64,000 nucleotides of DNA from Anaerolineae bacterium (GCA_046328535.1 JAXLWJ010000004.1:87800-151799); one strand, 5' to 3'; positions 1 to 27,707 are shown, counted from the first letter of the stretch. Numbers and translations: made by a program. Notes: generated by a model from the sequence alone, not told the origin.

Positions 1-95
1 CTGGGAGCGGAGACGCTACTGGGAGTTGCCGCTTCCAAAGAAGGACCGGAAACGGGTGAGTCTGTCGCAATCGTCAATGTGTCTCCTCAATACGG

Positions 96-1823
96 TTATG
101 GTAGCCGATACACGGTGATCGTCGGCCCCGGACGCTCGCGCTGCCAGAGACTGACAGCAGGCCCATAGACTTCGTCGAAGACCCACGTCCCCAGACTCAA
201 AGATGAGCTCGGGCGCAACTGTTGGACGAGTCCAAGATCGCTGGCCAGTGGGGCGTAGAAGCGTTGCCGAATCCGGTTCCGCTCCGCGTCTAGGACCGGG
301 ATGTCAGCGATGAAGCTGCTCACGACCAGATAGTCGTACCCTTGCTCACGGTACCAACTCAGCGGATGCTGCGATAGGCCCTCGCCGCCCAATACGGTGA
401 CATTGAACGTCCGCTCCGACGCGGGCTGCAGCTTGTCGTTAGTCGCCAGCGGCGGTCCGTAGAACGGCCAATCCACAGCTATTCTCGCACCCGCAGGAAG
501 GTTGTCTTCTATCCATTGCTTGGCGAGGGTTCGCGTGTCTGTTTGCGTCATCAAGTAATCAAAGCGGATTGAGTTAGCGAGAGGCTGCGACGTCACAAGC
601 ATGGCTATCCCCGCGACAACAGCAGCTTGAGTTCGGCGCTCAGGAAGGACCCTCGCGCATACCACATCGAGAGAGCGAGCCGCCAGTACCAGGATGATGG
701 GAACACACGGCAGTATGAAGCGGGCGAAGTACATCTGCTGGCGGCCAAGCAGGAGATAGAAGGTTACGGGCAAAGACAGGAGTACAACGTCGCCGGGCGA
801 ATGTCGCCATAGCGCCAGCGCCCATCCCGCCAACGTCAGGAAACACAGCCCCCAACCAAGCCCCCAGATCAATGTCCTGGCATAGAAGACATAACCGCCA
901 GCCGAATCAATCTGCCAGCCGTCGAATCCTTGCTGGGCGGCAAGGTAGAGACCCTGGTACGTATCATGGATAACGTTGCCGGGCCGCAGGATGAAGTACG
1001 GCGACACAATGACGGCAGTCAGGCCAGCAACAGCAGGGCTTACGATCAGGCGCGACAGGTTTGGCTTGGCGAGCCTAGACTGACTGGCTGACGGCGACAC
1101 GAAGTGGGCGACCACGATAGGGACGAGGGTGAAAATCGCCGAATACTTGGTAGCGAAGCCAAGCCCCAATGTTATTCCGGCGAGCACGTACCACCTGATC
1201 TTGCCTTCCACAGCAATCAGAATCGCGAACAGCATGGTTAGCGTCACAAGGAATGTCGTGGCGACGTCGTTGACGGCGAAGTGGGACTCCCGAACGTGGA
1301 AAAACGCTGTCGCCAGGAACCAGGCAGCTAGTAGGCCAACCCGCCGGTTGTAAGCGACCTCAGCGATCACAAACACAACGGCGATTGTCGCTGCGCCAAG
1401 CAGGGCGCTTGTACCGCGACCGAGGAGGTATAACGCAGTTGGGTCCAGCGTATTTGCCGCGCCAAATTCGGCGGTCGATCTATACCAACCTAACAGCTTG
1501 CCAACAAGAAAGAGGACACCGTACTCACCGAACAAGAGATACTTGAACAGTGGCGGGTTGCCCCACCCGGTCGGTTCGAGTCCATGCGTCCCCATGCTTG
1601 CGCCCTGACGAACGTATTGCACTTCGTCCACATGGTATTCGTAGGGCAGACCAAACCCAATGCCCCATAGCCGTAGCCCCAAGGCAAGGGCAAAAACGGC
1701 TGCAACCGCTGTCCTCGGACTAGTGAGAACGCGGAACCACAACGAAGGCAACTCGGCGGCTCTCGTCGTAGTAGAATCGAAAGTTCCCGCCGAAGATTTG
1801 TGAGTGATCGGTTCGACACTCAT
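96..1823 (-). CDS. Polytopic membrane glycosyltransferase of the GT-C fold (ArnT/PMT-like, GT39/GT83-type) with a large C-terminal soluble domain
   Basis: 575 aa. N-terminal half has multiple hydrophobic helices and a first-loop YEYHVDEVQY (DE) motif typical of GT-C enzymes (ArnT/PMT). ATG at 1821-1823. Last gene of the minus-strand glycan operon. Confidence 0.65.
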   Translation of the reverse strand: MSVEPITHKSSAGTFDSTTTRAAELPSLWFRVLTSPRTAVAAVFALALGLRLWGIGFGLPYEYHVDEVQYVRQGASMGTHGLEPTGWGNPPLFKYLLFGEYGVLFLVGKLLGWYRSTAEFGAANTLDPTALYLLGRGTSALLGAATIAVVFVIAEVAYNRRVGLLAAWFLATAFFHVRESHFAVNDVATTFLVTLTMLFAILIAVEGKIRWYVLAGITLGLGFATKYSAIFTLVPIVVAHFVSPSASQSRLAKPNLSRLIVSPAVAGLTAVIVSPYFILRPGNVIHDTYQGLYLAAQQGFDGWQIDSAGGYVFYARTLIWGLGWGLCFLTLAGWALALWRHSPGDVVLLSLPVTFYLLLGRQQMYFARFILPCVPIILVLAARSLDVVCARVLPERRTQAAVVAGIAMLVTSQPLANSIRFDYLMTQTDTRTLAKQWIEDNLPAGARIAVDWPFYGPPLATNDKLQPASERTFNVTVLGGEGLSQHPLSWYREQGYDYLVVSSFIADIPVLDAERNRIRQRFYAPLASDLGLVQQLRPSSSLSLGTWVFDEVYGPAVSLWQRERPGPTITVYRLP

Positions 1824-1827
1824 GCTA

Positions 1828-1871
1828 CTTCAGTACCCAGCGCAGGTGTTCCAGGCCGACACGGACGGCGC
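1828..1871. repeat. 44-bp near-duplicate (40/44) of the 3' end of the radical SAM gene (4875-4918), lying in the CgeB-like/GT-C intergenic spacer
   Basis: Read directly. In gene orientation the fragment encodes ...RAVRVGLEHLRWVLK*, versus the radical SAM C-terminus ...RAVRVGLEHLRWALKP*. Confidence 0.5.
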
Positions 1872-1914
1872 GTGATGGCGGCGGGGTCGCCCGCAAGCAG
1901 CGTGGCATGGCTTG

Positions 1915-2931
1915 TTACTGGCCTCGGGCGGCGTTCACAATAGTGAGCAACCCATTCTTCATTGTCAACTCTGTTGTGGTCAATTGACAAGCGTTGTCCG
2001 CTATCTGACGCCGTTCGTCCTCGTGAGATAGATAATGGCAAATGGTGTCAGCGAGCTGTTCTATGGGCGCTTCGACGAAATGCACGCCGGGTACGAACGG
2101 CGTGTGGGGCAGCGTCGGCTCGGTCACGATAAGGCTGCGACAGGGGGCCGCCAGGTAATAGCGCATTGAGTTATCATCCCACTGTTCCCGAAGCAAATTG
2201 AGCGTAACCTTCGTCCGGTTAAACAACACGTTCCTATCCTCACCAAATACGTAAGGATGCTCTACCCCGTCAATCACCATGATCTCGATATCGCGCCCAG
2301 CGAGTTGATCCCTCATGCGCTTCAGCAGCGTCCCACGGCGAGATGTGGCGATCTTGCCCAGCCACAGCACCGGTATGTCGCGGTCGAGGTTCAACGGATA
2401 ACTCCACCGATTGGACGCCCCCATGTAGGCGACCGTGGGGCGAAATCCTCTTCTCTCGAGAAGATCCGCCGTCCACAAAGAGCCGATCGCCAGCACATCC
2501 GGGAGGCCGTGCGATTTGAGCCAGTGCAAGTCACCATAGTATCTGAAACGAGACAGGCCCCGCGTTGCAAATCCAAACATGGGGCGGCTAGACCAGACGC
2601 GGGAAGGTGTCTCGGCTGTGACGAGCCTTTCGATTGCCGAACGTGTCGTGCCAACAGATCGCCACAACCACTCCGGCAGCGAAGGATCGGGGAACTGCTC
2701 TGTCATCCAAAATGCGAACAGTGGGCGTTGAGCTACGGGCAGAGCCAGCAACTGCTTGACCACAGGGACCACACTCCCAAACGGCCCATAGACAAGCACG
2801 AGTTCGACATCGCCGGGCAACGGGCCATAGCAGTCGAACCCTACTCCCTCGTGCCCCAATTCGGCCAAGGTGGCGACAATCTCTGTCGCGATACCATCAC
2901 CGTTTTGCCAGAACCCTACGCCTATTCTCAC
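1915..2931 (-). CDS. Glycosyltransferase, CgeB/GT1-like (Glyco_trans_1_2-type C-terminal domain)
   Basis: 338 aa continuous ORF. GTG start at 2929-2931 (ORF track renders it as M). C-terminal KIATSRRG...VIDGVEHPYVFGEDRNVLFNRTKV pattern resembles CgeB-like glycosyltransferases. Product assignment is moderate. Confidence 0.5.
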   Translation of the reverse strand: MRIGVGFWQNGDGIATEIVATLAELGHEGVGFDCYGPLPGDVELVLVYGPFGSVVPVVKQLLALPVAQRPLFAFWMTEQFPDPSLPEWLWRSVGTTRSAIERLVTAETPSRVWSSRPMFGFATRGLSRFRYYGDLHWLKSHGLPDVLAIGSLWTADLLERRGFRPTVAYMGASNRWSYPLNLDRDIPVLWLGKIATSRRGTLLKRMRDQLAGRDIEIMVIDGVEHPYVFGEDRNVLFNRTKVTLNLLREQWDDNSMRYYLAAPCRSLIVTEPTLPHTPFVPGVHFVEAPIEQLADTICHYLSHEDERRQIADNACQLTTTELTMKNGLLTIVNAARGQ

Positions 2932-2951
2932 AAGGTCTCCACGGCTTCGAG

Positions 2952-4178
2952 TCAGTGAACGGGAACCATGTCAGCCGACGGTATCGCCAGCCTCTGTCGG
3001 ACTTGCCCACCATTCTCAATCACAAACCGAATGATCTGGCAGATCGCGGCAACGTCACGGGTGGTCACGGCGGTGCCGGTCGGTAGCGACAACGCCCGAC
3101 AGCACAGCCGCTCGGTCTCTGGGAGGAGCAGCCCCGCGTGGGGGAAGTACGAGCGATACGGCTCCATCTGGTGGACACCGGGATAGAAATAGCGCCGCGC
3201 CAGCACATTCTCCGCGTGCAGAATCTCCACCATCTGGTCCCGCGTCACGCCCGTGACCGCTTCGTCAATTTCCAGGATGATGTATTGGTAATTGTTCCGC
3301 TCGTCCTCGTCGTACTGTGCCAGGCTCACCCCTGGCACATCGGCCAAGTCCGACTTGTAACGTAGATAGTTGTGGTGGTTCGTGGCAACGAAGTCGTCCA
3401 TACTCTCCAAACTCGTTAGCCCCATCGCCGCGCACACCTCGTTCATCTTGCCGTTCGTGCCGACATACAGCACCGTGTCATACCCCGCGAAGCCGAAGTT
3501 GCGCATATAGCGGATGCGCTCGGCCAGATCGTCGTCATTGGTGACCACCGCGCCGCCCTCAAACGTGTTCAGGAACTTCGTCGCGTGGAAGCTCAACACC
3601 TCAGCATCGCCAAACCCGCCGATCAGACGGCCTTTGTAGGAGCAGCCAAACGCGTGCGCCGCATCGAACAACAGCCGCAAGCGGCGGCGCTCCGCCATCT
3701 CCGTGAGGGCGTCAATGTCGCACGGCCTTCCCCAGACATGGACGCCGACAATGCCCGTCGTGCGGGGCGTAATCATCATCTCCACGCGCTGCGGGTCAAT
3801 GGAGTGCGTCCCCGGCTTGATGTCGGCGAAGACCGGCGTGATCTCCTGCCATTGGAGAGCATGGGCCGTCGCCACGAATGTGAAAGATGGCACGATGACC
3901 TCGCCCGTCATGCCGAGGGCGCGGATCGCGATCTCCAGGGCAATGGTGGCGTTGCACATCGCAACACAGTGCCGGACGCCGAGGAACTGGGCGATCGCCG
4001 CCTCGAACTCCAGCACGAATGGCCCATTGTTGGTCAGCCAGCGGCGATCGAGCATGTCATCGAGGCGTTCCATGAGCCGCCGCCGATCACCGATGTTGGG
4101 GCGGCCGACGTGGAGCGGCTGCTCGAACGCGACTTCGCCGTCGAAAACGGCCAGGTCAGTGAGCTTCGTCTTGCTCAT
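2952..4178 (-). CDS. DegT/DnrJ/EryC1/StrS-family PLP-dependent sugar aminotransferase
   Basis: 408 aa. Family-typical motifs: NGPFVLEFE, VAMCNATIALEIA, IVPSFTFVATA, SFHATKFLNTFEGGAVV, and MNEVCAAMGL. ATG at 4176-4178. Confidence 0.85.
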   Translation of the reverse strand: MSKTKLTDLAVFDGEVAFEQPLHVGRPNIGDRRRLMERLDDMLDRRWLTNNGPFVLEFEAAIAQFLGVRHCVAMCNATIALEIAIRALGMTGEVIVPSFTFVATAHALQWQEITPVFADIKPGTHSIDPQRVEMMITPRTTGIVGVHVWGRPCDIDALTEMAERRRLRLLFDAAHAFGCSYKGRLIGGFGDAEVLSFHATKFLNTFEGGAVVTNDDDLAERIRYMRNFGFAGYDTVLYVGTNGKMNEVCAAMGLTSLESMDDFVATNHHNYLRYKSDLADVPGVSLAQYDEDERNNYQYIILEIDEAVTGVTRDQMVEILHAENVLARRYFYPGVHQMEPYRSYFPHAGLLLPETERLCCRALSLPTGTAVTTRDVAAICQIIRFVIENGGQVRQRLAIPSADMVPVH

Positions 4179-4845
4179 GCAGATGCCATCCGCTTTCTCT
4201 CGTCTTCACGACGCGGCCCGGCACACCGACCACAGTGCTATTAGGCAGAACGTTTCGGATGACAGTACAGCCAGCCCCAATCACCGACCATCGTCCCACC
4301 TCGATTCGCTGGATGATGCTAGCACCAGTTCCGACATAACAGCCCTCTTGAAGTACGACGTTGCCCGATACGCAAACGCCCGGCCCCAAGGCTGCGAAGT
4401 CCGCAAACATCGTGTCATGACCTATCGTGCAGGCCGGGTTGATGTGGACATGCGCGCCTATATTGACATGATTGCTTAGCGTACAGCTTGCCGCAATGAC
4501 GGAACCCTCCCCTATCTCAACCCACCGCGTCACAATCACCGACGGATGAACAACGCTGCAGAAGTGACATCCCAGTTCGCGCGCGCGGGCCACCAGCCGT
4601 CTACGGTATTCTGGAGCGCCGACACCGCATATCACCTTCACGTGGTCCGCCAGGTCTCGGAGGCGGTCGAAGCCGCCCAGAATCGGCTTGTCGTTGACGA
4701 GAGTCCCCGGCGCGCCGTATTGAGGGTCTACGATGAAACCGAGGACATCATAGCGCGGGGTGTCCTGGTTGCACGCCTCGAAAACGTCCAACACTTCGCG
4801 CGCGAATCCCCCTGCCCCGATGATTACGACCCTTGTCATGTTCAT
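4156..4845 (-). CDS. NeuD/PglD-like hexapeptide-repeat sugar N-acetyltransferase
   Basis: The ORF track extends to 5106 with an Arg/Gly-rich spurious N-terminus. The real start is probably ATG at 4843-4845 (MNMTRVVIIGAGGFAREVLD Rossmann-like N-terminus), followed by left-handed beta-helix hexapeptide repeats (IGHDTMFADFAALGPGVCVSGNV...). It overlaps the aminotransferase start by 23 bp. Confidence 0.65.
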   Translation of the reverse strand: MNMTRVVIIGAGGFAREVLDVFEACNQDTPRYDVLGFIVDPQYGAPGTLVNDKPILGGFDRLRDLADHVKVICGVGAPEYRRRLVARARELGCHFCSVVHPSVIVTRWVEIGEGSVIAASCTLSNHVNIGAHVHINPACTIGHDTMFADFAALGPGVCVSGNVVLQEGCYVGTGASIIQRIEVGRWSVIGAGCTVIRNVLPNSTVVGVPGRVVKTRESGWHLHEQDEAH

Positions 4846-4868
4846 TAAGAATAGATCCGAAGTTGTTG

Positions 4869-6587
4869 TTACGGCTTCAGCGCCCAGCGTAGGTGTTCCA
4901 GGCCGACGCGGACGGCGCGTTTGAAGGTGGACGGGTCGCTGACCAGCATCTTGGCGTACGTCATCGCCGGGCCGGGCCGCAGCGCCCACTCCCGAAACGC
5001 GCGCTTCTGCCAGTACATCAGGTCCTCCGCCGAGAGGTTGTCGTATTGGAGGACGGTACCCTTGTCCATGTCCACCTCCTCCCACTTCGTCCCCGGCTTG
5101 AACCACCCCTTCTCCACCACCTCGAAGAAGAACGGCGTCCCCGGGTACGGCGCGGCGATGTGGAACAGCGCGATCTCCAGCGGCAGGCTCTTCGCGAAGT
5201 CAATCGTCTGGCGGATCGTCTCCACCGTCTCCCCCGGCAGCCCGATGATGAAGTAGCCCCAGTTCTTGATGCCCGCCTGCCGCGCCCACGTCAGCGCCTG
5301 CTGCGCCTTCTTCGGGTCCGCCCCCTTCGCCGCCCGCTTCAGAATCTGCTCGTTCCCACTCTCGATGCCCCACGAGATCATCCAGCAGCCGGCGCGGCCC
5401 ATCAGCCGCAGCATCTCCTCGTCCACGTAGTCCACGCGGCTGTTGCACGTCCACTTCACCTTCAGCCCCTCGTCAATGATGAGCTGGCACAGCTTTACCA
5501 CCTGCTCGCGGTTGATCGTGAACAGGTCGGCGTACATGTGGATGTTGTGGATGCCCAGGTCGTTCAGCAGCCACATCTCCTGCACGATGCGTTCTGGCGA
5601 GTGCAGCCGCACCGACCACTGGTACGTCACGTGCTTGATGCAGTACTTGCAGCCCGCCGTGCAGCCGCGGCTCGTCACCATGAACACGAACGGCCCCTTC
5701 ATCAAGGGCATGCGGTACTGGTCCAGCGGCAGGAGGTGGTACAGCGGGATCGGCAGGTCGTCGAGGACGGGGATGAAGGGGCGCGGCGGGTTCATGGTGA
5801 TCTCGCCGTTCTTGCGCCACACCAGCCCCTTGATTTTAGATAAGTCCGGCGGCACACCGTTCTTTGGCTTGTCGGGCGCCGTCGCCTCCCAGCGCGGGTC
5901 CGTCTTCGCTAGCAGCGTCTCCACCCACGCCGAGCGGTTCGACTCGCGGCCCTCCAGCACGTCAATCAGCTCGCGGAACGTCAGCTCCGGCTCGCCGCGC
6001 AGCACGTAGTCCAGGCCGGGGTAGTCGCGCAGTGTCTCCGTCGGCATCGCCGTCACGTGCGTCCCGAACGCGATCGTCACCGCCCCCAGCGCCTTCGCGA
6101 ACATCACCCCGTACATGTCGTTCGTCAGCGTCGGCGCGGTCACCTGGGTGAAGTAGTACTTCGGCGCCTTCTCCTGCACGATCTTCTCGAACTGCGGCCA
6201 CGTCATGCGCTCGGCGATCGCGTCCACGATATGCAGCGTGTAGTCCGGGTGGAGCATCGCCGCGTGCTGCGCCAGGGAGCACTGCGGCCACACCATCTCC
6301 TCGCGGCTGCGGCGGCCGACGCGGTGCTGCGTGCGGATCCAGATGCCGCCGTCCGGCGACGGCGGGTTCACCAGCATCACGTCCACCGCGCCCGGCGGCC
6401 GCGCCTTGATGAGGTCCCGCACCGCCGCGCCCGCGTCCGGGTACTGCGGTGGCCGGATCGGCTTCACCGCCCGCGTTCCCAGGTTATGCTTCAAGTCCTC
6501 CCGCGTCCCCACGTCCTCGACCTTGATGACGTCGTCGGGCAGCGTCGTTGTCGTCGGTTGTGTCGGCTGTATCCCGTTCGCGCTCAT
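4869..6587 (-). CDS. Cobalamin(B12)-binding radical SAM enzyme (class B radical SAM, methyltransferase-like)
   Basis: CxxxCxxC cluster motif SRGCTAGCKYC with an upstream B12-binding-like domain. True start is ATG 6585-6587, forming an ATGA 4-nt overlap with the upstream GT2 gene stop. The ORF-track N-terminal extension to 7469 is Arg-rich out-of-frame noise. Confidence 0.85.
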   Translation of the reverse strand: MSANGIQPTQPTTTTLPDDVIKVEDVGTREDLKHNLGTRAVKPIRPPQYPDAGAAVRDLIKARPPGAVDVMLVNPPSPDGGIWIRTQHRVGRRSREEMVWPQCSLAQHAAMLHPDYTLHIVDAIAERMTWPQFEKIVQEKAPKYYFTQVTAPTLTNDMYGVMFAKALGAVTIAFGTHVTAMPTETLRDYPGLDYVLRGEPELTFRELIDVLEGRESNRSAWVETLLAKTDPRWEATAPDKPKNGVPPDLSKIKGLVWRKNGEITMNPPRPFIPVLDDLPIPLYHLLPLDQYRMPLMKGPFVFMVTSRGCTAGCKYCIKHVTYQWSVRLHSPERIVQEMWLLNDLGIHNIHMYADLFTINREQVVKLCQLIIDEGLKVKWTCNSRVDYVDEEMLRLMGRAGCWMISWGIESGNEQILKRAAKGADPKKAQQALTWARQAGIKNWGYFIIGLPGETVETIRQTIDFAKSLPLEIALFHIAAPYPGTPFFFEVVEKGWFKPGTKWEEVDMDKGTVLQYDNLSAEDLMYWQKRAFREWALRPGPAMTYAKMLVSDPSTFKRAVRVGLEHLRWALKP

Positions 6588-7852
6588 CCCGCTCCCCCCA
6601 TTTCCCGGCTCACCTCCGCCTCGCGCTCGCTCAACGCCTCCAGCACCCGCATCACGATCCACGAGATGAACAGCTGCACCCCGATGAGCACCAGCAGCGC
6701 GCTCGCCAGCAGCCAGAACCACAGCCGCTGCATCTCCCACCCGGTCAGTCCCATCCCCAGCGCCCCGACCCCCACCACCGTCCCCGCCGCCACCGCCAGC
6801 AGCCCGATCCACCAGAACTGCCTGTCGAGGGGCTGGGCGAACAGCGGCTTGCCGAACAGCCCCTGGCGCACCGGCGCCTTGCGGAACAGGGACACCAGGT
6901 AGTTGAAGGTCGCGCCCAGGGTGAACAGGCTCACCCCCGCCACCCCTAACACCATCGCCGCGTAGACGCTGAACACGCCCCACGGCCCGAGCTGGGTGAT
7001 GCCCTGCGCCCGCATCCCGGCGATCACGACGGCGACGGCGACGGCGATAGTCATCGCCGCGACGCCAATCGCGCCGAGCAGCCGCGCCGGGTTGTACTCC
7101 AGCGAGGTCCACAGGATGGTGTAGAGGAACTTCGTCCCGTCGCGCACGACGCTCAGCTTGGAGCGGCCGACGCGCTCCTGGTAGGCGATGGGTACCTCGG
7201 CGACGCGCAGGCTCTCGTGGACGGCGCGCGTGCTCATGACCGGGGTGAAGTTGAGGCCGTCGGGCAGCGGGTAGAGCTGCGCCAGGGCCGCGCGTCGCAG
7301 GACGCGCATCCCGCTGGCCGGGTCGGCGACGCGCTGATTGCCGATCATGCTGACGAGGTTCGACCACATGAAGTTGCCGACCTGCCGCACCATCGGCATG
7401 TGGCTCTCGGCCCCGGACCGCCGCGACCCGACCGCCACGTCGGCGTCGTGGTCGAGGATGGCGCGGCACAGGGCGGGAAAGGCTTCCGGCGGGTACGTCC
7501 CGTCGGCGTCGGTGAAGGCCAGGAGCTGGCCGCGCGCCGCGTTGAAGCCGGTCTTGATGGCCGCGCCGTAGCCGCGATTGACGGGGTGGCGGATGAGGCG
7601 CGCCTGCGGGAGACCCTCGACGATCTCGGCGGTGCGGTCCGTTGAGCCGTCGTCCACGACGAGAATCTCCAGCCGCTCGACGCCGGCGGCCGTCAGCGCC
7701 GGCCCGACGGCGGCGATGCGGCGCACGATGTCGGCGATGCCGTCCTCCTCGTTCAGCGCCGGGATGACCACCGAGAGCATCACCGGCGCGGCGATGGTCC
7801 GGTCAATCGCTCGTCCAAGCTCTAGCGGATAGAGTGCGCTGTCTACGGTCAT
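6584..7852 (-). CDS. GT2-family polyprenyl-phosphate glycosyltransferase (DPM1/ArnC/GtrB-like) with C-terminal transmembrane helices
   Basis: 422 aa. VVIPALNEE, LVVDDGSTDRT, TDADGTYPPE and GSRR are typical GT2-A motifs. Hydrophobic C-terminal 150 aa. ATG 7850-7852. Confidence 0.85.
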   Translation of the reverse strand: MTVDSALYPLELGRAIDRTIAAPVMLSVVIPALNEEDGIADIVRRIAAVGPALTAAGVERLEILVVDDGSTDRTAEIVEGLPQARLIRHPVNRGYGAAIKTGFNAARGQLLAFTDADGTYPPEAFPALCRAILDHDADVAVGSRRSGAESHMPMVRQVGNFMWSNLVSMIGNQRVADPASGMRVLRRAALAQLYPLPDGLNFTPVMSTRAVHESLRVAEVPIAYQERVGRSKLSVVRDGTKFLYTILWTSLEYNPARLLGAIGVAAMTIAVAVAVVIAGMRAQGITQLGPWGVFSVYAAMVLGVAGVSLFTLGATFNYLVSLFRKAPVRQGLFGKPLFAQPLDRQFWWIGLLAVAAGTVVGVGALGMGLTGWEMQRLWFWLLASALLVLIGVQLFISWIVMRVLEALSEREAEVSREMGGAG

Positions 7853-7865
7853 CTCGCCCCCCTGT

Positions 7866-8519
7866 TTACGCGAAGAAGACCTGCCGTTGCGGCGTCGCGC
7901 CGTTGGCGTCCACCGTCTTGATCACCCGCGCCGGAACCCCCGCTACCACCGTATGCGGCGGCACATCGTTCGTGACGACCGCGCCCGCCGCGACCACCGC
8001 CCCCCGGCCGACGCGGACGCCGTCGGTGAGGATCGCCCCGCCGCCGATCCACACGTCGTCCTCGACCACGATGCCGTCGGCGGTGATGCCCTGCTCGATG
8101 AACGGGCGGTGGGGGTCGCTGTAGACGTGGTTGACGGCCAGCATCTGCACCAGCGGCGAGGTATAGACCCGGTCGCCGATGGTGATGCCCCCCTGGCCGC
8201 GCAGGACGTTGTACTCACCGATGAGGCTGTCGCGTCCGATGCGGATGCCCGAGTGGGGCAGGCCGCGGAAGTTGTAGACGTGGAGGATAGCGCCGTGCAT
8301 CACCAGGGTGTTCGCCCCAATGTCAATGCCGTTGGGGCAGGCGTGCAGGTAGACGCCGTGGTCGAGGTATGCGCCGCGGCCGAGGCGGATGTTGCCGGCG
8401 AACCGCAGCCGCACGCCGTTCTCGATGGCCGCCGCGCCGTCCATACGCAGGATGAGCGGGTAGAGGAGGGCGCGCGCGCCGATGCCGACGACCGTCGGCA
8501 TCCAGCCGACGAGGGCCAT
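7866..8519 (-). CDS. Hexapeptide-repeat (LbH) O-acetyltransferase with N-terminal hydrophobic anchor
   Basis: Hexapeptide repeats ([49 protein letters not shown]) follow an N-terminal hydrophobic stretch. Start is ambiguous: ATG at 8517-8519 is chosen, with GTG at 8592-8594 as alternative. The ORF-track start at 8855 is Arg-rich noise overlapping gmhB. Confidence 0.6.
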
Positions 8520-8566
8520 GATGACTTGCTCGAACGTATAGCGCGGCAGGCTCGCCGCCTGGCGGC

Positions 8567-9214
8567 TCAGGTAGAGTCGGAGTTGGTCAACCACGGTTGT
8601 GTCAGCCTGGCTTGCGGGGCGTTCGGCAGGGGCCAGCGCGGGAAGAGGCGCTGGCGGAGGGCGCGGCGGCGCTCGGCCCAGATGAGCCAGCTCACGGCGT
8701 TCGGCAGATCGGGCGCGACCTGATAGCGCCTGAACTCGTGCGCCGCCGGCGAGGCGAGCTGCTGCCGCCCGCGGCCCGTCCGCACCAGCACGGTCGCGCA
8801 GCCGGCGGCCTGCCCGGCGGCGATGTCGCTGAAGGCGTCGCCGACGAGGTAGCACTCGCTCAGGCGGAGGTTGAACGACTGCGCGGCCTGGATGAGCAGG
8901 CCCGGCTTCGGCTTGCGGCAGTCGCAGCCCTCGGCGGGGTCGTGGGGGCAGTACAGGACGGCGTCAATGGCCCCACCAGCCGTCTCGACGGTCGCCAGCA
9001 TGCGCCCGTTGATGTCTTCGACCACGGCTTGCGGCACGATGTGGCGGTGAATGATAGCCTGGTTGGTCACGACGATGACCCGCCAGCCGGCGGCGCGCAG
9101 GCGGCGCAGCGAGGCCAGGGCGCCCGGCAGGAAGACGAACTCATCCCACGACTTGACATGATCGGCCCGGTTCTCGTTGATGACGCCATCGCGGTCGAGG
9201 AACACGGTTTTCAT
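8567..9214 (-). CDS. gmhB: HAD-IIIA family D-glycero-D-manno-heptose 1,7-bisphosphate phosphatase
   Basis: 215 aa. N-terminal DRDGVIN HAD motif I and the VVTNQ motif. [18 protein letters not shown] Zn-finger-like insert and a GDAFSD motif IV are characteristic of GmhB/histidinol-phosphatase-type HAD-IIIA enzymes. ATG 9212-9214. Confidence 0.75.
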
Positions 9215-9229
9215 GGTCAGGGCCTTGTG

Positions 9230-10306
9230 TTAGGCGCGGAGAACGACGCCGTTGATCGAGCGCCACGCCGGATGAACGTGGTAGCCATTTTTGCGCGGGA
9301 GGGTGTTGAGCACGACCGTCGTGCCCTGGTAGTCGAAGACGAAGTTCATCCGCACCAGCCCTGCGCCTTCCAGCGCCCTGGTCACGTCCGCCTGCCGCTC
9401 CGCTGGACAGTACAGCATCAGGAAGCCGCCGCCGCCTGCCCCGGTCACCTTGCCGCCGACGGCGCCGTGCGCCCGCGCCAGGGCGTAGTAGCCGTCAATC
9501 GCGGTGTTGCTGATGTTGGGCGCGAGGCGCTTCTTCTGCTGCCACCCCTCGTCCATCAGGCCCCCGAAGCCGTCCACGTCGCCCGCCTCCAGGCACTCCC
9601 GCATCCCCTCGGCCAGCGCCTTGATGGCGTGCAGCGCCTCGACAACGGGGCCGCGCCTGGCTTCGCTGGCGCGCTTCTGCTCGCGCAGGATGTTGGAGGA
9701 CTCGCGGGCGCTGCCGGTGAAGAAGAGGAGAAGGCGCGCTTCGAGCTGCCGCAGGGTCTCGTCGCTCGCCCCGAGCGGCTCGACCGTGACGCCATCGGCG
9801 CTAAAGCGGATGACGTTCACCCCGCCGAAGGCCGCGATGTACTGGTCCTGCTTGCCGACCGGCAGCCCGAGCTTCTCGATCTCGATGTGGGCCGCCGTCT
9901 CCGCGATCTCGTGGCGGGACAGCGGGATGTCGCACAGGGTGCTGAGGGCGCGAACGAGGGTCACGGCCACGCTGCCGGATGATCCCAGGCCAGTGCCGGG
10001 CGGCACTTCCGAGGCGAGGAACACGTTGTACTCGCGCTCCACGCCGAAGTGGCTCAGCGCGGCGCGGGGCAGCTCCAGGCCTGCCTTCCAGAACGTCGGC
10101 TGGTCCGGGTCGTGGCGGTAGAACGTGTGGTAGTCGGACGACACGATCTGGACGCCATCGCCGGCGCGGGCAGCGGAGATCATCGTGTAGAAGTATTTGT
10201 TGATGGCCGCGCTCACCACGAGGCCCCCGTAGGGCTGGTAGTAAGCTGCGAGGTCGGTCCCGCCGCCGCCGAAGCTGATGCGAACCGGGGCCCGCGCGAT
10301 CAACAT
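9230..10306 (-). CDS. hddA: GHMP-family sugar kinase, D-glycero-D-manno-heptose 7-phosphate kinase-like
   Basis: 358 aa. N-terminus RAPVRISFGGGGTD, GHMP ATP-binding motif PPGTGLGSSGSVAV, and C-terminal GAGGGGF. It is adjacent to gmhB, implying an NDP-heptose pathway. ATG 10304-10306. Confidence 0.7.
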   Translation of the reverse strand: MLIARAPVRISFGGGGTDLAAYYQPYGGLVVSAAINKYFYTMISAARAGDGVQIVSSDYHTFYRHDPDQPTFWKAGLELPRAALSHFGVEREYNVFLASEVPPGTGLGSSGSVAVTLVRALSTLCDIPLSRHEIAETAAHIEIEKLGLPVGKQDQYIAAFGGVNVIRFSADGVTVEPLGASDETLRQLEARLLLFFTGSARESSNILREQKRASEARRGPVVEALHAIKALAEGMRECLEAGDVDGFGGLMDEGWQQKKRLAPNISNTAIDGYYALARAHGAVGGKVTGAGGGGFLMLYCPAERQADVTRALEGAGLVRMNFVFDYQGTTVVLNTLPRKNGYHVHPAWRSINGVVLRA

Positions 10307-10355
10307 GATCGCTCCTGTAGGTTATGCTTGGGAGGGGTGAGTAGCGCGCGAGACC

Positions 10356-10410
10356 GTAGTAACGACTTGAGTCGTTTCTCAGGCCGCAGAACGACTGAAG
10401 TCGTTACTAC
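10356..10410. repeat. Double-hairpin element A (aacgacttgagtcgtt ... aacgactgaagtcgtt, flanked by gtagta/tactac)
   Basis: Read directly: two CGACT-loop-AGTCG hairpins in an inverted-repeat frame, located in the 133-bp gap between the NusG-like gene and the kinase. Confidence 0.5.
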
Positions 10411-10439
10411 AAAATACGTAACTTATGTATGACGAACCT

Positions 10440-10976
10440 CTAGAACCGCTCGAGGATCTCGGTGTTGACGTCGCAGCGCGTGAACCGGCCCATGACCTCG
10501 ACGAGGATCTGGGCGCGCTCGAAGCCGCTCAGGTGGCCTTCGAACACGGCCTCCAGGTCCTTGAGTGGGCCAGCCGTAATCCGCACCCGGTCGCCGCTCC
10601 GCAGCACGTTCTGCGGCGTGCCGGTCATCTGCCGCACGCGGCGGCGAATGTGCTCGATCATGTCTTGCGGCAGCGGTGTCGGCTCGCCGCCGAAGCTCAC
10701 CACAGTCCGCAGGCCGGGCAGCCACGTCACCTGGGAGATGCCAACTTCGTCGAGGTCGAGGTGGACGAAGCTGTAGCATGCAAACAGCGGCTCTTCCTCC
10801 ATGCGGCGGCGCCGCGCCCGCCACACGGGCATCAGGGGCAGGTAGCTCTCGTGGCCGCGCGCCGCGAGCGCTTCGCTCACCTGGCGCTCAGCGTGGGGCT
10901 TGGTGTAGAGGGCGTACCAGGCGCACTTCGTCGGTTGGGGTTCGGTGGGCCGCGTGATGGCGCGTGCTTGACTCAT
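10440..10976 (-). CDS. NusG-family transcription antitermination paralog (NGN + KOW; LoaP/UpxY/RfaH-like), first gene of the glycan operon
   Basis: NGN domain WYALYTKPHAERQVSEAL...LFACYSFV, and KOW GDRVRITAGPLKDLEAVFEG. The start taken is ATG at 10974-10976 (MSQARAITRP...); the ORF-track start at 11042 is a 22-aa upstream extension. Confidence 0.75.
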   Translation of the reverse strand: MSQARAITRPTEPQPTKCAWYALYTKPHAERQVSEALAARGHESYLPLMPVWRARRRRMEEEPLFACYSFVHLDLDEVGISQVTWLPGLRTVVSFGGEPTPLPQDMIEHIRRRVRQMTGTPQNVLRSGDRVRITAGPLKDLEAVFEGHLSGFERAQILVEVMGRFTRCDVNTEILERF

Positions 10977-11403
10977 GGCCTCTATTCCTACGGCGGTGAG
11001 GAAGGTGGGCGTCGGCGGACCAGGCTCCGCCGATCTGTGCACGAGTGTGTCCAGGTCGGTGCTTCAGTATGGGAGTGGCTCACGGCCACCGCGCTGAACG
11101 ATGCCGGAATGTACGCGAGAACGAAGTCCAACACGCAACTAACAATCAGGCCGAACACTCGGGCAATAACCGGAACTAACGATAGTTAGGGATGGGAACA
11201 GCAGCGCCTCGAGGGGCAGGGGGGATGCCTCTCCGCAATCATTGACGCGGCTGAGTTGCTCTACGTTGGGGGGTTAGAGCGTGCGATTCAGACGGAGGGG
11301 GCGTCGTTTGGACGACGCTGTCCAGGAGTCGGTTAAGCCAAATAGACGTATTGGGTAACTGGCGCTCCCCTCCAGCGCCAGACCCCTTATCGGCGTTCTG
11401 TCC

Positions 11404-11778
11404 TTAACACAGCTTTAAGGACACAATCATAAGTATAGCTCCTGACGCTTTATGAATCGCTTTATGAATCGCTTTAGGTGGCGTGAATACACCTGTGGGG
11501 CTGCAATTGTTGCCTGAGTGTACTGACGGATTGAGCATTTCATACCACCGGGCATAATCCAGGCCACCTCTAAATGTTGTAACCTCTGACGGCGTCTCGC
11601 CCCGCAGTCGGGCCATCGTCTCCCGGTACGCTTCGAGTACTTCAACGTCATACCCATAGGAAATGTTACGGTTGAAGGCGACCGGTTTCATCCACCACAC
11701 GCACGAAGTCCACCCAACACCGCTGGGTGGACTTCGTGGGGAAACGGGACCTGAACCTGGCTGTGGCGCGTCGGCCAT
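11404..11778 (-). CDS. Hypothetical small protein in a low-GC spacer (doubtful)
   Basis: 124-aa ORF in an approximately 50% GC intergenic stretch between copy 1 and the NusG-like gene. It contains a 13-bp tandem repeat (tttatgaatcgc x2, giving KAIHKAIHKA) and is hairpin-rich. It may be non-coding. Confidence 0.2.
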   Translation of the reverse strand: MADAPQPGSGPVSPRSPPSGVGWTSCVWWMKPVAFNRNISYGYDVEVLEAYRETMARLRGETPSEVTTFRGGLDYARWYEMLNPSVHSGNNCSPTGVFTPPKAIHKAIHKASGAILMIVSLKLC

Positions 11779-11811
11779 CGCGCCGCGTATGAAACAACCT
11801 CTGGCTGCTGC

Positions 11812-14800
11812 CTACGGTCGTCTTGCGCCCCTCGCGCCCTGGCCGTCTACCTCAACCGCTTGACCGTGTCCCAGCCCCACCGAATCACGCGCCACATACG
11901 GGAAGTAGAGGCTGTAGCTCTTCTGACCCGGCGTGGTGAGACTCTGCACGCGCAGCGGCGTCTTCAGCGCCTCGACGTTGCCGGCCTTGTCAATGGCGCG
12001 GCTGCGTAGCGCGACCGCGCCGCGCGGGGCGCTGACAGTCGCGGCCCACAGCGTGCCGGCGCCGCCGGTGGTGTCCGCCTTGGCGTCGTCAGGACACAGC
12101 GCGCCGGCCAGCAGGGCCGCCGCCGCCGCGCCGGTCGTGGCGTCCGTCCACGTCTGCCCACCGTCCACGCTGACCTGCGCCTGGGCGATGCCCCAGCCGT
12201 CGGTGGCGTAGCCCCAGGCGAGAATCTGGTCGGGGGCCAGCCCCTGGCACGCCTGGGGAACTGTCGCGCCGGGACGGGGGTAGACGATGTCCGACACGGG
12301 CGCGATGCTGTCCACGGTGACTGTGACCGGCGCGGACGGGGCGCTCACGTTGCCCGCCGCGTCGGTGGCCCGCGCGCGGATCGTGTGCTGGACGCCCTCC
12401 TCAGTGGGCAAGGGCCAGTTGTAGCGCCAGACACGCGGCGCGCCCGGCCGGGGCAGTAGCCCCACGGGCAGGTACGGTCCGGCGACGACCTGCCACGGCC
12501 CGCCGTCTATCGCCACCTCCACCCGCTCGATACCGCCGCGAACGCTCAGCGGCGCCGGATCGTAGGCGCTGCCGCTGATGGTGGCGATCCGGCCCTTGAG
12601 CGCCGCGAAGTCGTCGAGCGCCACGGTGGCCTGCGGCGGCGTATTGTCCACGGTGACGGTCGCCGACACCGGCGCGCTCACCTGGCCGAAGATGTCGTGG
12701 CCGCGCGCCTGGACGACGAACTCGCCGCTGGCCGGTACATCAATCCCCACCTGCCAGCCCAGGTTGGTGAAGATGCCGCCGACCTGGGAGGGTGTCACCA
12801 CCCACGGCCCGTCGTTCACCCGGACTTCGACGAAGCCGAGGCCGGTCTGGTCACTCGCCGTGCCGGTCACCGTTTGCCGCCCGCTACGCATCGTCGCGCC
12901 GACGGGCAGGGCAATGGCAACGCGCGGCGGCTGGTTGTCCACCGCGCGCGTGGCGCTGGATTGGGCCAGGCTGACATCGCCGCTCGCTGTCGCGCTCTTC
13001 ACCGCGGCCGTGACCGTGACCGCCTTGATGCCGGCGACGTTGGCGCCGAGGCCCGCCGTGACGGTGATCGGTGTCTGGGGGCCGGGGGCGAGGTTGCCCA
13101 ATGGAATGAGCCAGCGGCTCGCGGGCGCCTGGGGGGGCAGGCCGTGGATGGACTGGAGGGTTGCGCCGTCGCTGGCGGTGATCTCCAGCGTCAGGTCGGT
13201 CACTGGCACGCGGTCCACGTTGGTCAGACTGAGGCTCCACGGCGCGGCGCTGTTTGGCCCAAGGATGCGGCTCGACCCGCGAGGATTCTGGACACTCAGC
13301 GTCACGTGGCGGCCCTGCGGCTGGCCCGCGTTCGGCGCCGTCGTCGGCGTGATGCTCGTCCAGTGGTAGGCGCTGGTCCACGGGCCGAGCACCGATTGGG
13401 CCGTCGGGAAGACGCTGGCGACGCGGCCGCCGGCGTCGTTGAAGGCCAGCATCCGCACGTCCACGGCCGGGAGCGCGACGCCGAGGTCGCGCCACGGCAG
13501 GGCGATCTCGGTGTCACCCTCCGCGCCCGTTCGCGCCGCGCCGAAGTCGTGCTGCTCCCAGGCGCGGCCGGTCCAGTGGTACACGGCGTTGCCCGAGCCG
13601 CGCAGGGCGACGGCAAAGTCGGCGTTGAACGGTAGGGTCTGGGCCTGGGGGGCGCTCGCCCACAGTTGCGTTGTGCCGCCCGCCCTGGTGTCCAGGTAAA
13701 TGTAGCCCACGCCGTTGACGCCCCACGCCGCGCCGCGCCAGCCGATATACAGGTTGGTCGCGTCGAAGCTGGCCCACAGACCCTGGGACTGCGTCGGACG
13801 CGGGTCCACGTCGAGGCGCTCCGACGCGAGCTTCCACTCGCCGCGCGCCACGTCCATAAAACCGTTGACCTGGATGGACGACTGCCACGCGCCGTCGGCG
13901 TCCTTGGCCGCGCCGCCACCGCTGGCGCCGACGAGCCACGGGCCGAAGTGGCGCACCGTGGTGTTGCCGACCCTGTCCCTGGCGGCCAGGTGGACGTACC
14001 ACGTCCCCGCGCTCGTCAGCTGCGCGGTGTAGCTGGCGCCCGTCACGGCGTCGCCCGTCGTCGGGTTGGTGTCGCTCGTCTGGTCCACTACGGCGATGAC
14101 GGACACCTGCCCACTACCGTCGGTCAGCGGCGGCCACGTCAGGCCCACCGAGGCGGGCGCTGTCAGGTGAGCGCCGGGGCTGGGCTGGAGCTGGGCCTGG
14201 AAGGGCGTCGGCCCCAGGTTATCGGCGACGAAGACGACCGGCTGCACGGTCGCGTTCCCCGCGCGGTCCGTGGCTCGGATGCGGGCCGGGAAGGACGCGG
14301 AATCCGCGCCGCTCGGGACCGTGTAAGCCCACGTCCACGTGTTAGCGGTAAGCGTCGCCGCCGTCCACGTCTTCCCGCCGTCCGCGCTGCCCTCGACCAG
14401 GACCACGCCACTGGTCGCGTCGCCCGTCGTACCCGCGAGGGTGAGCGCGCTCGTGATCACGCCCGTCGGTGGGACGATGGTCACGGTCGGCGCGGCGCTG
14501 TCCTTGATGAGCGTGAGAACCGTGTCACCCGGCGCGCTGCTGCCGGCGGTGCGGCTGGCGCGGAGCGTTATGCTGTGGGAGCCATCGGCGCTGAGCGTGA
14601 TTGGCGCGCTCCAGCGGGTCGCCTGAGCCGTCGGGTTGGCGAGCGTCGCCTTGCCCTGACTGACGCCGTCAACCAGCACCTCGACCTGTCCCTGCCCGTC
14701 GGTGGCGGCGAAGTGAACCGCGCCCGCCAGCGTCAGCGTACCCGACACGACCGCCGCGCCCGGCGTGGGCGACAGCAGGGCCGCCTCGTTGCGCGTCGTG

Positions 14801-27029: not shown

Positions 27030-27678
27030 CCGCAAAACCCGAAACCGGTCAAGCCGGGGCGACGAGTCAGTCTCGTACACTCGCCCCGGCTACCCCAGCT
27101 TTTCCGATGAGCGCATTTTCATCGTGTGTGAAGGCTCGGTTACGGAGCCGCAGTACTTCCTCGGGCTGCGTCGGTCATGTGACCTGCGCGCGTATCAGGT
27201 CCAGGTCGAAGTAGATGTCCCTAACCCCGTCAAGCTCGTGCAGATTGCACAGAGAGCAGCCCGTTCGCGTCGTGGGCGAACGATAGAATTCAGCCAGGTA
27301 TGGTGCGTCGTGGACGTCGAAGGCCCTGCTCCCACCGCGGAGTTCCATCGGGCCGTTGCGGTTGCCCGAGAGCATAACCTTCACCTTGCCGTCTCCAATC
27401 CATGTTTCGAGTACTGGTATCTGCTCCATTTCCGGGAGACCGATCAGCCGTTCCACAATGCTGAGGAGGTCATCCGCGCCCTTAGGGAACAGAACTGCTT
27501 TCCTGCCTACGACAAAAACTGCAACGCTTTCGAGGCTCTGGCCGACCGCACCGACCTCGCTATCGAACGCGCTGAACGCCTCCTCAAACGCCACGTCGGC
27601 GCCGAAGACTTTCCCAACCCCTCGACCACCGTCTTTCGCCTCGTTCGCAAAATCCAAGACATGTCGAGCGGTCTGTAA
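27019..27678 (+). CDS. RloB-like protein (AbiLii-type partner)
   Basis: 219 aa. IFIVCEGSVTEPQYF (CEG-x-TE-x-YF) and NPCFEYWYLLHF motifs typical of the RloB family. 11-bp overlap with the ATPase gene suggests translational coupling. Confidence 0.8.
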   Translation: MGNSRKTRNRSSRGDESVSYTRPGYPSFSDERIFIVCEGSVTEPQYFLGLRRSCDLRAYQVQVEVDVPNPVKLVQIAQRAARSRRGRTIEFSQVWCVVDVEGPAPTAEFHRAVAVAREHNLHLAVSNPCFEYWYLLHFRETDQPFHNAEEVIRALREQNCFPAYDKNCNAFEALADRTDLAIERAERLLKRHVGAEDFPNPSTTVFRLVRKIQDMSSGL

Positions 27679-27707
27679 TCCGCGAGCTTCAACACCCGTT
27701 CCATCCA

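Follow-up and report, generated by a model that had tools for sequence, protein, structure and literature searches.

What does a long glycan operon make when it lies directly beside genes for giant surface proteins, and is the product meant for those neighbours? The question is raised by a 64-kb stretch of an Anaerolineae (Chloroflexota) metagenome-assembled genome (the window; all coordinates are window positions), in which ten intact, co-oriented minus-strand genes occupy positions 96–10976. The initial annotation read these genes as a candidate dedicated protein-glycosylation system, with a GT-C membrane glycosyltransferase modifying the giant proteins next door. Our analysis points with moderate confidence to a different role, that of a cell-surface polysaccharide operon (exopolysaccharide or wall glycan) built from two modules and placed under processive-antitermination control.

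Results and Discussion

An operon of two modules

Coordinates and family scans agree on ten tightly packed genes of the families originally named, and gene order bears out a glycan operon headed by the gene of a NusG paralog. The overlaps are real: the genes for a GT2 glycosyltransferase and a radical S-adenosylmethionine (SAM) enzyme share an ATGA, and a PglD-like acetyltransferase gene shares 23 bp with its DegT aminotransferase partner. The remaining intergenic gaps measure 13–133 nt.

The operon is a mosaic of a native cassette and a foreign-looking tail. The cassette (4869–11042) consists of an ops-like leader element followed by genes for the NusG paralog, an HddA-like kinase, GmhB, an acetyltransferase, the GT2 and the radical SAM enzyme. 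The tail (96–4845) encodes a PglD/VioB-like acetyltransferase, a DesI-like aminotransferase, a CgeB-like glycosyltransferase and the GT-C. GC content at third codon positions (GC3) is 0.89–0.95 in the six cassette genes, matching the giant genes (0.91–0.92). It is lower in the four tail genes (0.66–0.81), which suggests that the tail was horizontally acquired. DNA homology to a related locus, L083, whose radical SAM enzyme is 98% identical, runs from window position 11042 to 4875 and covers no other segment; the limits of this block are the leader element and the radical SAM stop codon. Past the GT-C gene, the operon probably continues beyond the window edge. An Rfam scan of positions 1–12500 returned zero matches.

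A conserved core in polysaccharide loci

The ten window proteins were compared by tblastn with 80 related loci. The acyltransferase–GT2–radical SAM trio was almost invariant, often with a NusG paralog ahead and sometimes with HddA and GmhB, and the four tail genes were not conserved downstream of it. ORF clustering placed the GT2 gene adjacent to that of the radical SAM enzyme in 67 of 78 loci and the acyltransferase gene in 56. The radical SAM enzyme has 304 relatives in a species-representative genome collection (64–84% identical; Chloroflexota, Acidobacteriota and Acidimicrobiia) and more than 5345 in the protein database, none of which bears a functional name.

Neighbours were counted by clustering the ORFs of 83 loci and assigning Pfam families to a representative of each cluster; annotated contexts were used as well. 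Most frequent were a WbaP-type phosphoglycosyltransferase (29 loci), Wzz/BY-kinase (24), an epimerase (24) and GT4 enzymes (20). Wzy_C proteins followed the radical SAM enzyme immediately in 19 + 15 loci. A second PMT_2-type GT-C (15 loci), a small EamA-type membrane protein (13) and Wzm and Wzt (13 and 12, respectively) were also found. This set is the parts list of surface-polysaccharide pathways. The membrane partner of the GT2/radical SAM core differs from genome to genome, and no homology was detected between the GT-C of the window and two other such partners, a PMT_2 protein in L024 and a 558-aa protein with nine transmembrane (TM) helices in L083.

Literature searches on the cassette (radical SAM with heptose/GHMP, or with polyprenyl phosphate/GT-C) gave nothing relevant. 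The cassette is thus far unnamed and very conserved, with more than 5000 sequence clusters, and sits in exopolysaccharide loci. Its carriers are abundant bacteria of soil, sludge and sediment, and flocs and biofilms are shaped by their surface polymers. The product of the cassette, once known, would give bacterial glycobiology a further sugar modification.

Enzymes of the cassette

The GT2 (6584–7852, minus strand, as for all operon genes; 422 aa; PF00535, 114.7 bits) has the features of a polyprenyl-phosphate glycosyltransferase of the ArnC/DPMS/GtrB type. A GT-A domain is followed by four predicted C-terminal TM helices (residues 255–392), and solved members are recognizably similar (ArnC, E 9.5e-23 over residues 25–330; DPMS 5mlz, 2.5e-17; GtrB 5eke, 1.3e-08). 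Top NCBIfam matches are AglJ, ArnC and DPM-type models. Upstream of it lies the gene for a WcaF-like hexapeptide acyltransferase (7866–8594; PF00132; WcaF family, 66.7 bits).

The last gene of the conserved block encodes a class-B-type radical SAM enzyme of an unnamed family (4869–6587; PF04055, 98 bits) that carries the cluster motif CTAGCKYC (CxxxCxxC). Its best NCBIfam match is HpnJ (TIGR03471; 222.3 bits, under the cut-off of 577.6), and its nearest solved relative is AprD4 (6fd2, 1.4e-27). The B12 part of its earlier description as a B12-radical-SAM protein is weaker than first given: the match to the B12-binding domain reached 23.6 bits, under the Pfam cut-off of 32.1, although the best relatives are all class-B-type enzymes. 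AprD4 is not known to be cobalamin-dependent.

The combination recalls two known arrangements. Like the hopanoid HpnI/HpnK/HpnJ set, it pairs a GT2 and an acetyl-handling enzyme with an HpnJ-type radical SAM protein for work on a membrane-lipid-linked sugar. It differs in that the radical SAM enzyme falls far under the HpnJ cut-off, the GT2 is DPMS/ArnC-like and not HpnI-like, and an acyltransferase takes the place of the deacetylase. The context is also one of polysaccharide and not hopanoid synthesis: hopanoid genes were absent from every locus examined around the radical SAM relatives. Three-component systems (GtrA/GtrB/Gtr; ArnC/ArnEF/ArnT; CsbB/GtcA/YfhO; GacI/GacL) likewise combine an ArnC/DPMS/GtrB-type GT2 with a GT-C, and the small EamA-type membrane protein of 13 related loci adds to the likeness. 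Unlike these systems, the window operon has no flippase gene, the membrane partner varies among genomes, and a radical SAM enzyme and an acyltransferase always accompany the GT2. We know of no described three-component system with that coupling.

The proposed heptose branch was only partly recovered. An HddA-like GHMP sugar kinase (9230–10306; D-glycero-D-manno-heptose-7-phosphate 1-kinase type) matched NF049969 over its full length with 180.7 bits, well under the equivalog cut-off of 600, and matched WcbL (4usk, E 5.5e-59) and HddA (3k85/4n3o) in the PDB. The adjacent gene encodes a GmhB-type HAD-IIIA heptose bisphosphate phosphatase (8567–9214; NF006506, 180.5 bits, just over the cut-off of 178). 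This adjacency is shared with the GDP-D-glycero-alpha-D-manno-heptose pathway, which uses GmhA, HddA, GmhB and HddC. The window operon differs from that pathway in holding the HddA-like kinase and GmhB alone, both of which are optional companions of the core.

The interval between these two genes varies elsewhere. In L084 only, it contains a gene for a SIS-domain protein. In L088, whose NusG paralog is 86% identical to that of the window, a 524-aa gene with no Pfam match is inserted there (L088 6836–8410).

The NusG paralog and an ops-like leader element

The first gene of the operon (10440–10976) encodes a specialised NusG paralog with NGN and KOW domains (PF02357), RfaH-like and of a distinct subfamily. 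RfaH is the best NusG-type model (TIGR01955; 103.6 bits, under the cut-off of 144.5) and provides the best PDB matches, and the UpxY model (NF033644) reaches 69.4 bits, short of its cut-off of 100. The close family is small (56 sequence clusters, labelled RfaH by JGI), and sequencing runs SRR14234083–86 contain NusG genes identical to that of the window. In a HMMER alignment to E. coli RfaH, K10 is kept, and the ops-contacting residues of the T6 pocket, H20, R23, Q24 and R73, correspond to A36, A39, R40 and P. AlphaFold2 (AF2) predicts the KOW domain (residues 130–177) to be a five-stranded beta-barrel (predicted local distance difference test score, pLDDT, 89.6) and not alpha-helical, unlike the autoinhibitory alpha-hairpin of RfaH. 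A strongly basic motif, VWRARRRRxE, is conserved in the subfamily (alignment A5; window residues 51–60) at the position of the NusG beta-hairpin loop and may contact upstream DNA or RNA.

An antitermination element had been suspected within 10977–11400, and an ops-like sequence is present there. GGCGGAGCCTG lies at 11021–11031, 45 nt upstream of the NusG start codon, and is conserved in related leaders. The full element, GTGCACAGATC-GGCGGAGCCTG (11021–11042, minus strand), is followed by an inverted repeat, CGGCGGA/TCCGCCG. Across the leaders of the window, L083, L087, L003 and L004, the island GCACrGATsGGCGGAGCCTG is invariant and its surroundings have diverged; the Anaerolineales consensus of the element is ATGTCGGAAGGGCGGAGC(N)TG. 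In 82 loci, the coding strand carries 20 copies of GGCGGAGCNTG and the opposite strand one, versus ~3.9 per strand expected from composition. Of the 20 copies, 18 are upstream of cassette genes, where they precede the NusG gene or fall in the interval between it and the gene that follows. A 29-nt weight matrix (score >16) likewise found 23 coding-strand sites and one opposite-strand site. Within the 64-kb window it gave a single strong hit, 25.3 at 11015–11043 (next best 12.2), at the head of the operon and not ahead of the giant genes.

The E. coli element ops12 is GGCGGTAGCGTG, in which RfaH reads base T6 (PMC5995543), and Bacteroides opsX sequences include PSA ccgcgtagcgca and PSE CTGCGAAGCATA (PMC11685472). 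GGCGGAGCCTG is the E. coli 12-nt ops GGCGGTAGnnTG without T6; put another way, GGCGGAGCNTG departs from ops12 by the missing T6 alone and ends in the pause-inducing TG (PMC5995543). The new element shares GCG-N-AGC-N-TG with both ops12 and opsX and fits the G-10/Y-1/G+1 pause pattern, with G at −10 and TG at −1/+1. From homology and motif conservation, we infer that the NusG paralog acts at this motif.

As with RfaH/ops in proteobacterial lipopolysaccharide, capsule and adhesin operons, a short conserved non-template-strand element stands in a long leader, and the target is a long surface-glycan operon. Unlike RfaH, which is encoded elsewhere and acts in trans, the window paralog is the first gene of its own operon. 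In that respect it resembles UpxY/opsX of Bacteroides capsule operons, where a locus-specific NusG paralog heads a polysaccharide operon and the leader carries a recruitment/pause element in the same register, GCG-N-AGC (PMC11685472). It differs from UpxY/opsX in that the second gene encodes a GHMP kinase, there is no UpxZ-like gene, and the element follows the paralog gene in several loci.

A polysaccharide operon controlled by a NusG paralog is thus of a known type, and the noteworthy parts are the ops-like element in Chloroflexota and the unnamed acyltransferase–GT2–radical SAM cassette. Control by NusG paralogs and ops elements is established for Proteobacteria and Bacteroides, and LoaP of Bacillus works differently. 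We found no description of an ops-like element for Chloroflexota in the literature searched, and a search for NusG paralogs in Chloroflexi returned nothing relevant. A Chloroflexota element that keeps GCG-N-AGC-N-TG would make read-out of the non-template strand far older or more convergent than thought.

The spacer between the nusG and hddA genes holds a hairpin with 21-nt arms (95% complementary; 10356–10410, minus strand) in an AT-rich insert of ~90 nt. It is unique in the window, is absent from L083, L003 and L087, and could be a small mobile element or an RNA structure.

Tail enzymes and the GT-C

Three tail genes point to an acetamido sugar and its transfer. The NeuD/PglD/VioB-family amino-sugar N-acetyltransferase (4156–4845; GC3 0.66) matched TIGR03570 with 199.7 bits (cut-off 160.8) and PglD_N. 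The DegT aminotransferase (2952–4178; GC3 0.81) resembles DesI, an NDP-4-keto-6-deoxyhexose 4-aminotransferase (NDP, nucleoside diphosphate). It scored 562 bits against TIGR04427 (cut-off 650) and E 4.6e-137 against DesI 2po3 in the PDB, against ~1e-49 for ArnB. A CgeB-like Glyco_trans_1_2 protein (1915–2931; PF13524, 47.4 bits; GC3 0.66) separates these from the GT-C.

The GT-C (96–1823), a membrane glycosyltransferase with a C-terminal soluble domain, exceeds the Pfam cut-offs for both PF13231 (PMT_2; 53.1 bits) and PF02366 (PMT; 52.8 bits against 22.7). All 36 homologues share its D66-E67 loop motif, which lines up with the DE of Pmt4, so that the enzyme combines the PMT domain with the outer-loop DE of GT39/PMT enzymes. 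Exact-sequence look-ups gave no record for it. The sequence alone found zero hits in the PDB, and a family profile searched against solved sequences matched only Pmt4 (E 1.6e-4). Structure gave a broader picture. An AF2 model from the 36-sequence alignment (pLDDT 90.1) adopts the GT-C fold, and Foldseek placed it at a similar distance from STT3/AglB, ALG9/12, ArnT, Pmt4 and PglB (TM-scores 0.45–0.57, normalised to query length; 12–15% identity), with STT3/AglB, ALG9/12 and ArnT ahead of Pmt4. Resemblance to GT66 oligosaccharyltransferases is one of fold only: neither a PF02516 match nor a WWD motif was detected in the GT-C, and the archaeo_STT3 model scored 19 bits (cut-off 450). Among GT39 PMTs (eukaryotic PMT; actinobacterial Pmt with Ppm1), the likeness consists of PMT/PMT_2 membership, the DE of the first outer loop and the Pmt4 profile hit. 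The differences are an identity of 12–21% to any solved PMT, a fold equally near oligosaccharyltransferase, ALG and ArnT, a C-terminal alpha/beta domain instead of MIR, and Wzm/Wzt gene partners.

An ArnT enzyme serving a 4-amino-4-deoxy-L-arabinose (Ara4N) pathway, which the initial annotation had named as the contrary outcome, was rejected. The GT-C had no PDB sequence match to ArnT, the aminotransferase is DesI-like rather than ArnB-like, and family scans found no ArnA or ArnD homologue in the operon. Chloroflexota are regarded as lacking lipid A, which also makes an ArnT role unlikely. By its sequence signature, the GT-C is PMT-like, has no close characterised relative and is not ArnT-like.

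Five homologue loci besides the window (GT-C 40–62% identical) provided context, and all five are glycan loci. In L001 the neighbours are a GT2, GT4s, a sulfatase and a BNR protein. The other four (L002, L093, L094 and L095) have BNR proteins and AsnB-like genes together with Wzm/Wzt that includes a Wzt_C domain. In L093 and L094 the radical SAM gene of the cassette lies 6–7 kb upstream of the GT-C relative, and in L095 a NusG paralog gene abuts the GT-C gene. The link between this GT-C clade and the cassette is thus recurrent, and the GT-C probably consumes the lipid-linked product of the cassette. If the window locus resembles L002 and L093–L095, genes for a BNR-repeat protein, Wzm/Wzt and an AsnB-like enzyme would be expected to the left of position 1.

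Other genes recur beside the GT-C clade. They include BNR-repeat (sialidase-like beta-propeller) proteins (L001, L093, L094 and L095), AsnB-like amidotransferases, sulfatase/sulfotransferase genes and Wzt_C-bearing Wzt, and these neighbours suggest that the polymer is exported by an ABC transporter and is either amidated or sulfated. A C-terminal membrane anchor was seen, by eye, only in the BNR-type representatives from cassette loci L051 and L026.

Loss of a regulator and the giant-gene neighbourhood

A candidate promoter/operator (11431–11487, minus strand) lies ~400 nt upstream of the ops-like site, in an island conserved among the window, L087 and L083 leaders, which are otherwise 64% identical. 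It comprises TTCACGC..TAAAGCG, a tandem 12-nt repeat (ATTCATAAAGCG x2; 11446–11469) and TATACT (11432–11437). ATTCATAAAGCG occurs twice in the window against 0.01 expected. The conservation and layout suggest a promoter/operator role; a scan for consensus promoters and terminators gave nothing exceeding shuffled expectation.

The closest relative with context, L087 (NusG 86% identical), reveals how the giant genes came to lie beside the operon. Its gene order is giant orthologue, GH127, a 158-aa gene, RibD_C, a BTAD/TPR (SARP-like) regulator and the NusG cassette. Four genes thus separate giant orthologue and cassette, three of them (GH127, the 158-aa gene and RibD_C) on the opposite strand. 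The orthologue encodes 4517 aa and has 81% DNA identity to the 4534-aa gene of the window. The window lacks L087 ~2585–8900 (~6.3 kb: GH127, the 158-aa gene, RibD_C and most of the regulator), and regulator remnants persist at 11540–11710 (minus strand; blastn of L087 against the window). L087 8900–9012, within the regulator gene, matches window 11710–11597, a further fragment lies at ~11540–11600, and the last regulator codons and stop align at ~11570–11590. The missing segment and the retained fragments mark the adjacency of giant gene and operon as the product of a lineage-specific deletion. In L083 and L087–L089 the regulator is intact directly upstream of the cassette and ends just upstream of the promoter island; the deletion also removed this presumed cognate activator.

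Two candidates in this context were rejected. A 124-aa ORF (11404–11778) has no Pfam hit and is composed of regulator remnant plus promoter repeats. A paralogous BTAD regulator elsewhere in the window (58958–62398) is not the orthologue of the cassette-adjacent regulator of L083: identity is 31% and domain order differs. A perfect 15-nt inverted repeat with a 7-nt loop (11702–11738), ~75 nt past the stop of the 4534-aa gene, is a possible terminator between giant gene and operon, with no T-run after it.

The composition of the giants did not match their earlier description as rich in Ser/Thr/Pro linkers. Serine amounts to 6–7.6%, threonine to 6.5–8.7% and proline to 6.6–7.3%, and no genuine giant ORF has a 30-residue window with at least 60% S+T+P. 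Nor is proximity to large genes a habit of the cassette. No giant gene occurs in the ~5.4 kb retrieved upstream of the L083 cassette, and in only 3 of 51 loci (at least 15 kb long) does any ORF within 10 kb of it reach 1200 aa, with none reaching 1500. With adjacency created by deletion and a polysaccharide context elsewhere, we found no evidence for a system dedicated to the neighbouring giants. Adjacency to giant adhesin genes can be an accident of rearrangement.

Proposed pathway

The families of the genes, the conservation and neighbourhood of the cassette, the enrichment of the motif, the break in composition and the deletion are direct observations; the donor, the acceptor and the radical SAM chemistry we infer as follows. 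The promoter with its tandem 12-nt repeats would start a leader of ~400 nt and would originally have been served by the adjacent BTAD regulator, deleted here. RNA polymerase would pause at the ops-like non-template GGCGGAGCCTG, where the operon-encoded NusG paralog may be loaded, as homology and motif conservation suggest, permitting read-through of the ~11-kb unit. The HddA-like kinase and GmhB would supply a heptose-1-phosphate-type precursor, and the ArnC/DPMS-type GT2 would load a sugar, possibly heptose-derived, onto polyprenyl phosphate. The WcaF-like acyltransferase and the HpnJ/AprD4-like radical SAM enzyme could then tailor the lipid-linked sugar, with C-methylation, deoxygenation and ring rearrangement as candidate reactions. 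In parallel, the DesI-like aminotransferase and the VioB/PglD-like acetyltransferase would yield an NDP-4-acetamido-4,6-dideoxyhexose; the tail would also contribute the CgeB-like glycosyltransferase. At the external face of the membrane, the GT-C may move the lipid-phosphate-linked sugar to an exported polymer.

A wider proposal, which we advance tentatively and hold to be rather less likely than not to survive in full, concerns the core in all three phyla. The trio may make an undescribed lipid-linked donor, a polyprenyl-phosphate sugar that is possibly heptose-derived and is remodelled at the membrane by radical chemistry, which interchangeable membrane transferases (GT-C, Wzy_C and others) would install on surface polymers. 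Licensing of this pathway in Chloroflexota would fall to a NusG-paralog/ops system that diverged independently, the third of its kind, with a DNA element nearly that of E. coli.

Several points weigh against a polysaccharide operon made and controlled in this way. No member of the cassette has a known product, donor or acceptor, and the operon contains no flippase, HddC (nucleotidyltransferase) or GmhA gene. HddA and GmhB join the core in only ~20–25 of 82 loci. The ops-like motif is found in just 16 of the 82, all Chloroflexota, and a k-mer sharing search among Acidobacteriota loci with a NusG paralog found no common leader motif. The PMT-family signatures of the GT-C, including the DE motif, make a protein acceptor possible, and the relatives of Wzy_C, which follows the radical SAM enzyme in 34 loci, include protein O-oligosaccharyltransferases. 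Finally, with its cognate regulator deleted, the operon might be poorly expressed.

Alternative explanations

A protein acceptor could take two forms. The GT2 could make a polyprenyl-phosphate sugar with which the PMT-like GT-C O-glycosylates the neighbouring giants, as a dedicated adhesin-glycosylation system; Ppm1/Pmt of actinobacteria and the Pgf system of Streptococcus mutans are precedents. Consistent with this are the Pfam PMT and PMT_2 scores, the invariant D66-E67, Pmt4 as the only solved structure found by the family profile, with DE motifs aligned, and a PgfS-type model among the GT2 matches (3.8e-17). A giant gene is also adjacent in the window and within ~7.5 kb of the cassette in L087, L095 has a gene for a 1706-aa surface protein close to its GT-C relative, and the lack of lipid A attributed to the phylum leaves an ArnT role unlikely. 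We nevertheless judge it improbable. The adjacency was created by deletion, L083 has no giant gene in the ~5.4 kb upstream, a large ORF is nearby in just 3 of 51 loci, and the giants lack both Ser/Thr/Pro-rich tracts and an ops-like site ahead of their genes. GT-C relatives are embedded in Wzm/Wzt polysaccharide loci, and the fold search sets the GT-C equally near oligosaccharyltransferase, ALG, ArnT and PMT. Slightly better placed, if still unlikely, is another protein acceptor such as an S-layer: a carrier-built glycan would be exported by a Wzm/Wzt pair encoded beyond the window and ligated to protein by a membrane transferase, as in Geobacillus and Paenibacillus. The S-layer glycan loci of monoderm bacteria such as these have as hallmarks heptose and 4-amino-4,6-dideoxyhexose pathways, ABC export and Wzy_C-type ligases. 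Here Wzy_C follows the radical SAM enzyme in 34 loci, and Wzm/Wzt flank the GT-C relatives. Against these stand the window, in which no S-layer gene or SLH-domain protein was identified, the fact that Wzy_C is just as typical of polymerases and lipid ligases, and the Wzz/BY-kinase and WbaP-like neighbours, which point to a free or capsular polysaccharide.

A pathway to a small molecule, namely a glycosylated natural product, is the reading to which we give least credence. Antibiotic clusters are known to carry SARP-type regulators, NusG paralogs of the LoaP/TaA kind, AprD4-like radical SAM enzymes, DesI-like aminotransferases and heptose enzymes. Here AprD4 and DesI are the best solved relatives of the respective enzymes, and BTAD regulators stand upstream of the cassette in L083 and L087–L089. 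The GT2 is however a membrane polyprenyl-phosphate enzyme and the GT-C a polytopic one, and the neighbours are envelope-polysaccharide genes without polyketide synthase, non-ribosomal peptide synthetase or aglycone genes. The locus might also be decaying or silent, a regulator having been lost and foreign genes joined, so that it is perhaps no longer one expressed unit. Regulator remnants at 11540–11710, the foreign hairpin insert in the spacer and the atypical composition of the tail would fit such a fate, which we consider about as doubtful as glycosylation of the giants. On the other side, none of the ten closely coupled reading frames is broken, the promoter-like island and ops-like element are conserved, and a paralogous BTAD regulator remains at 58958–62398. 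A surface polysaccharide pathway in which the GT-C acts outside the cytoplasm remains our preferred reading.

Other features of the giant-gene region

Three further observations concern the giant genes themselves. The segment 27780–30412 (minus strand) has 67–68% DNA identity to the last 2.5 kb of the L087 giant orthologue; its reading frames are broken, and it probably arose as a copy of the 3′ end of a giant gene that has since decayed. The ORFs 43421–49246 and 47829–56066 (minus strand) overlap by 1.4 kb in different frames, and the N-terminal part of the former translates to low-complexity Arg/Pro-rich sequence. Positions 43421–56066 are probably a single gene of ~4200 codons, interrupted by a frameshift or by an error of assembly. 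Between two giant genes, a low-GC island (25710–28400; 0.60 versus ~0.70) carries a plus-strand gene for an AAA_21 (AbiEii-like) ATPase and is possibly a defence or mobile insert.

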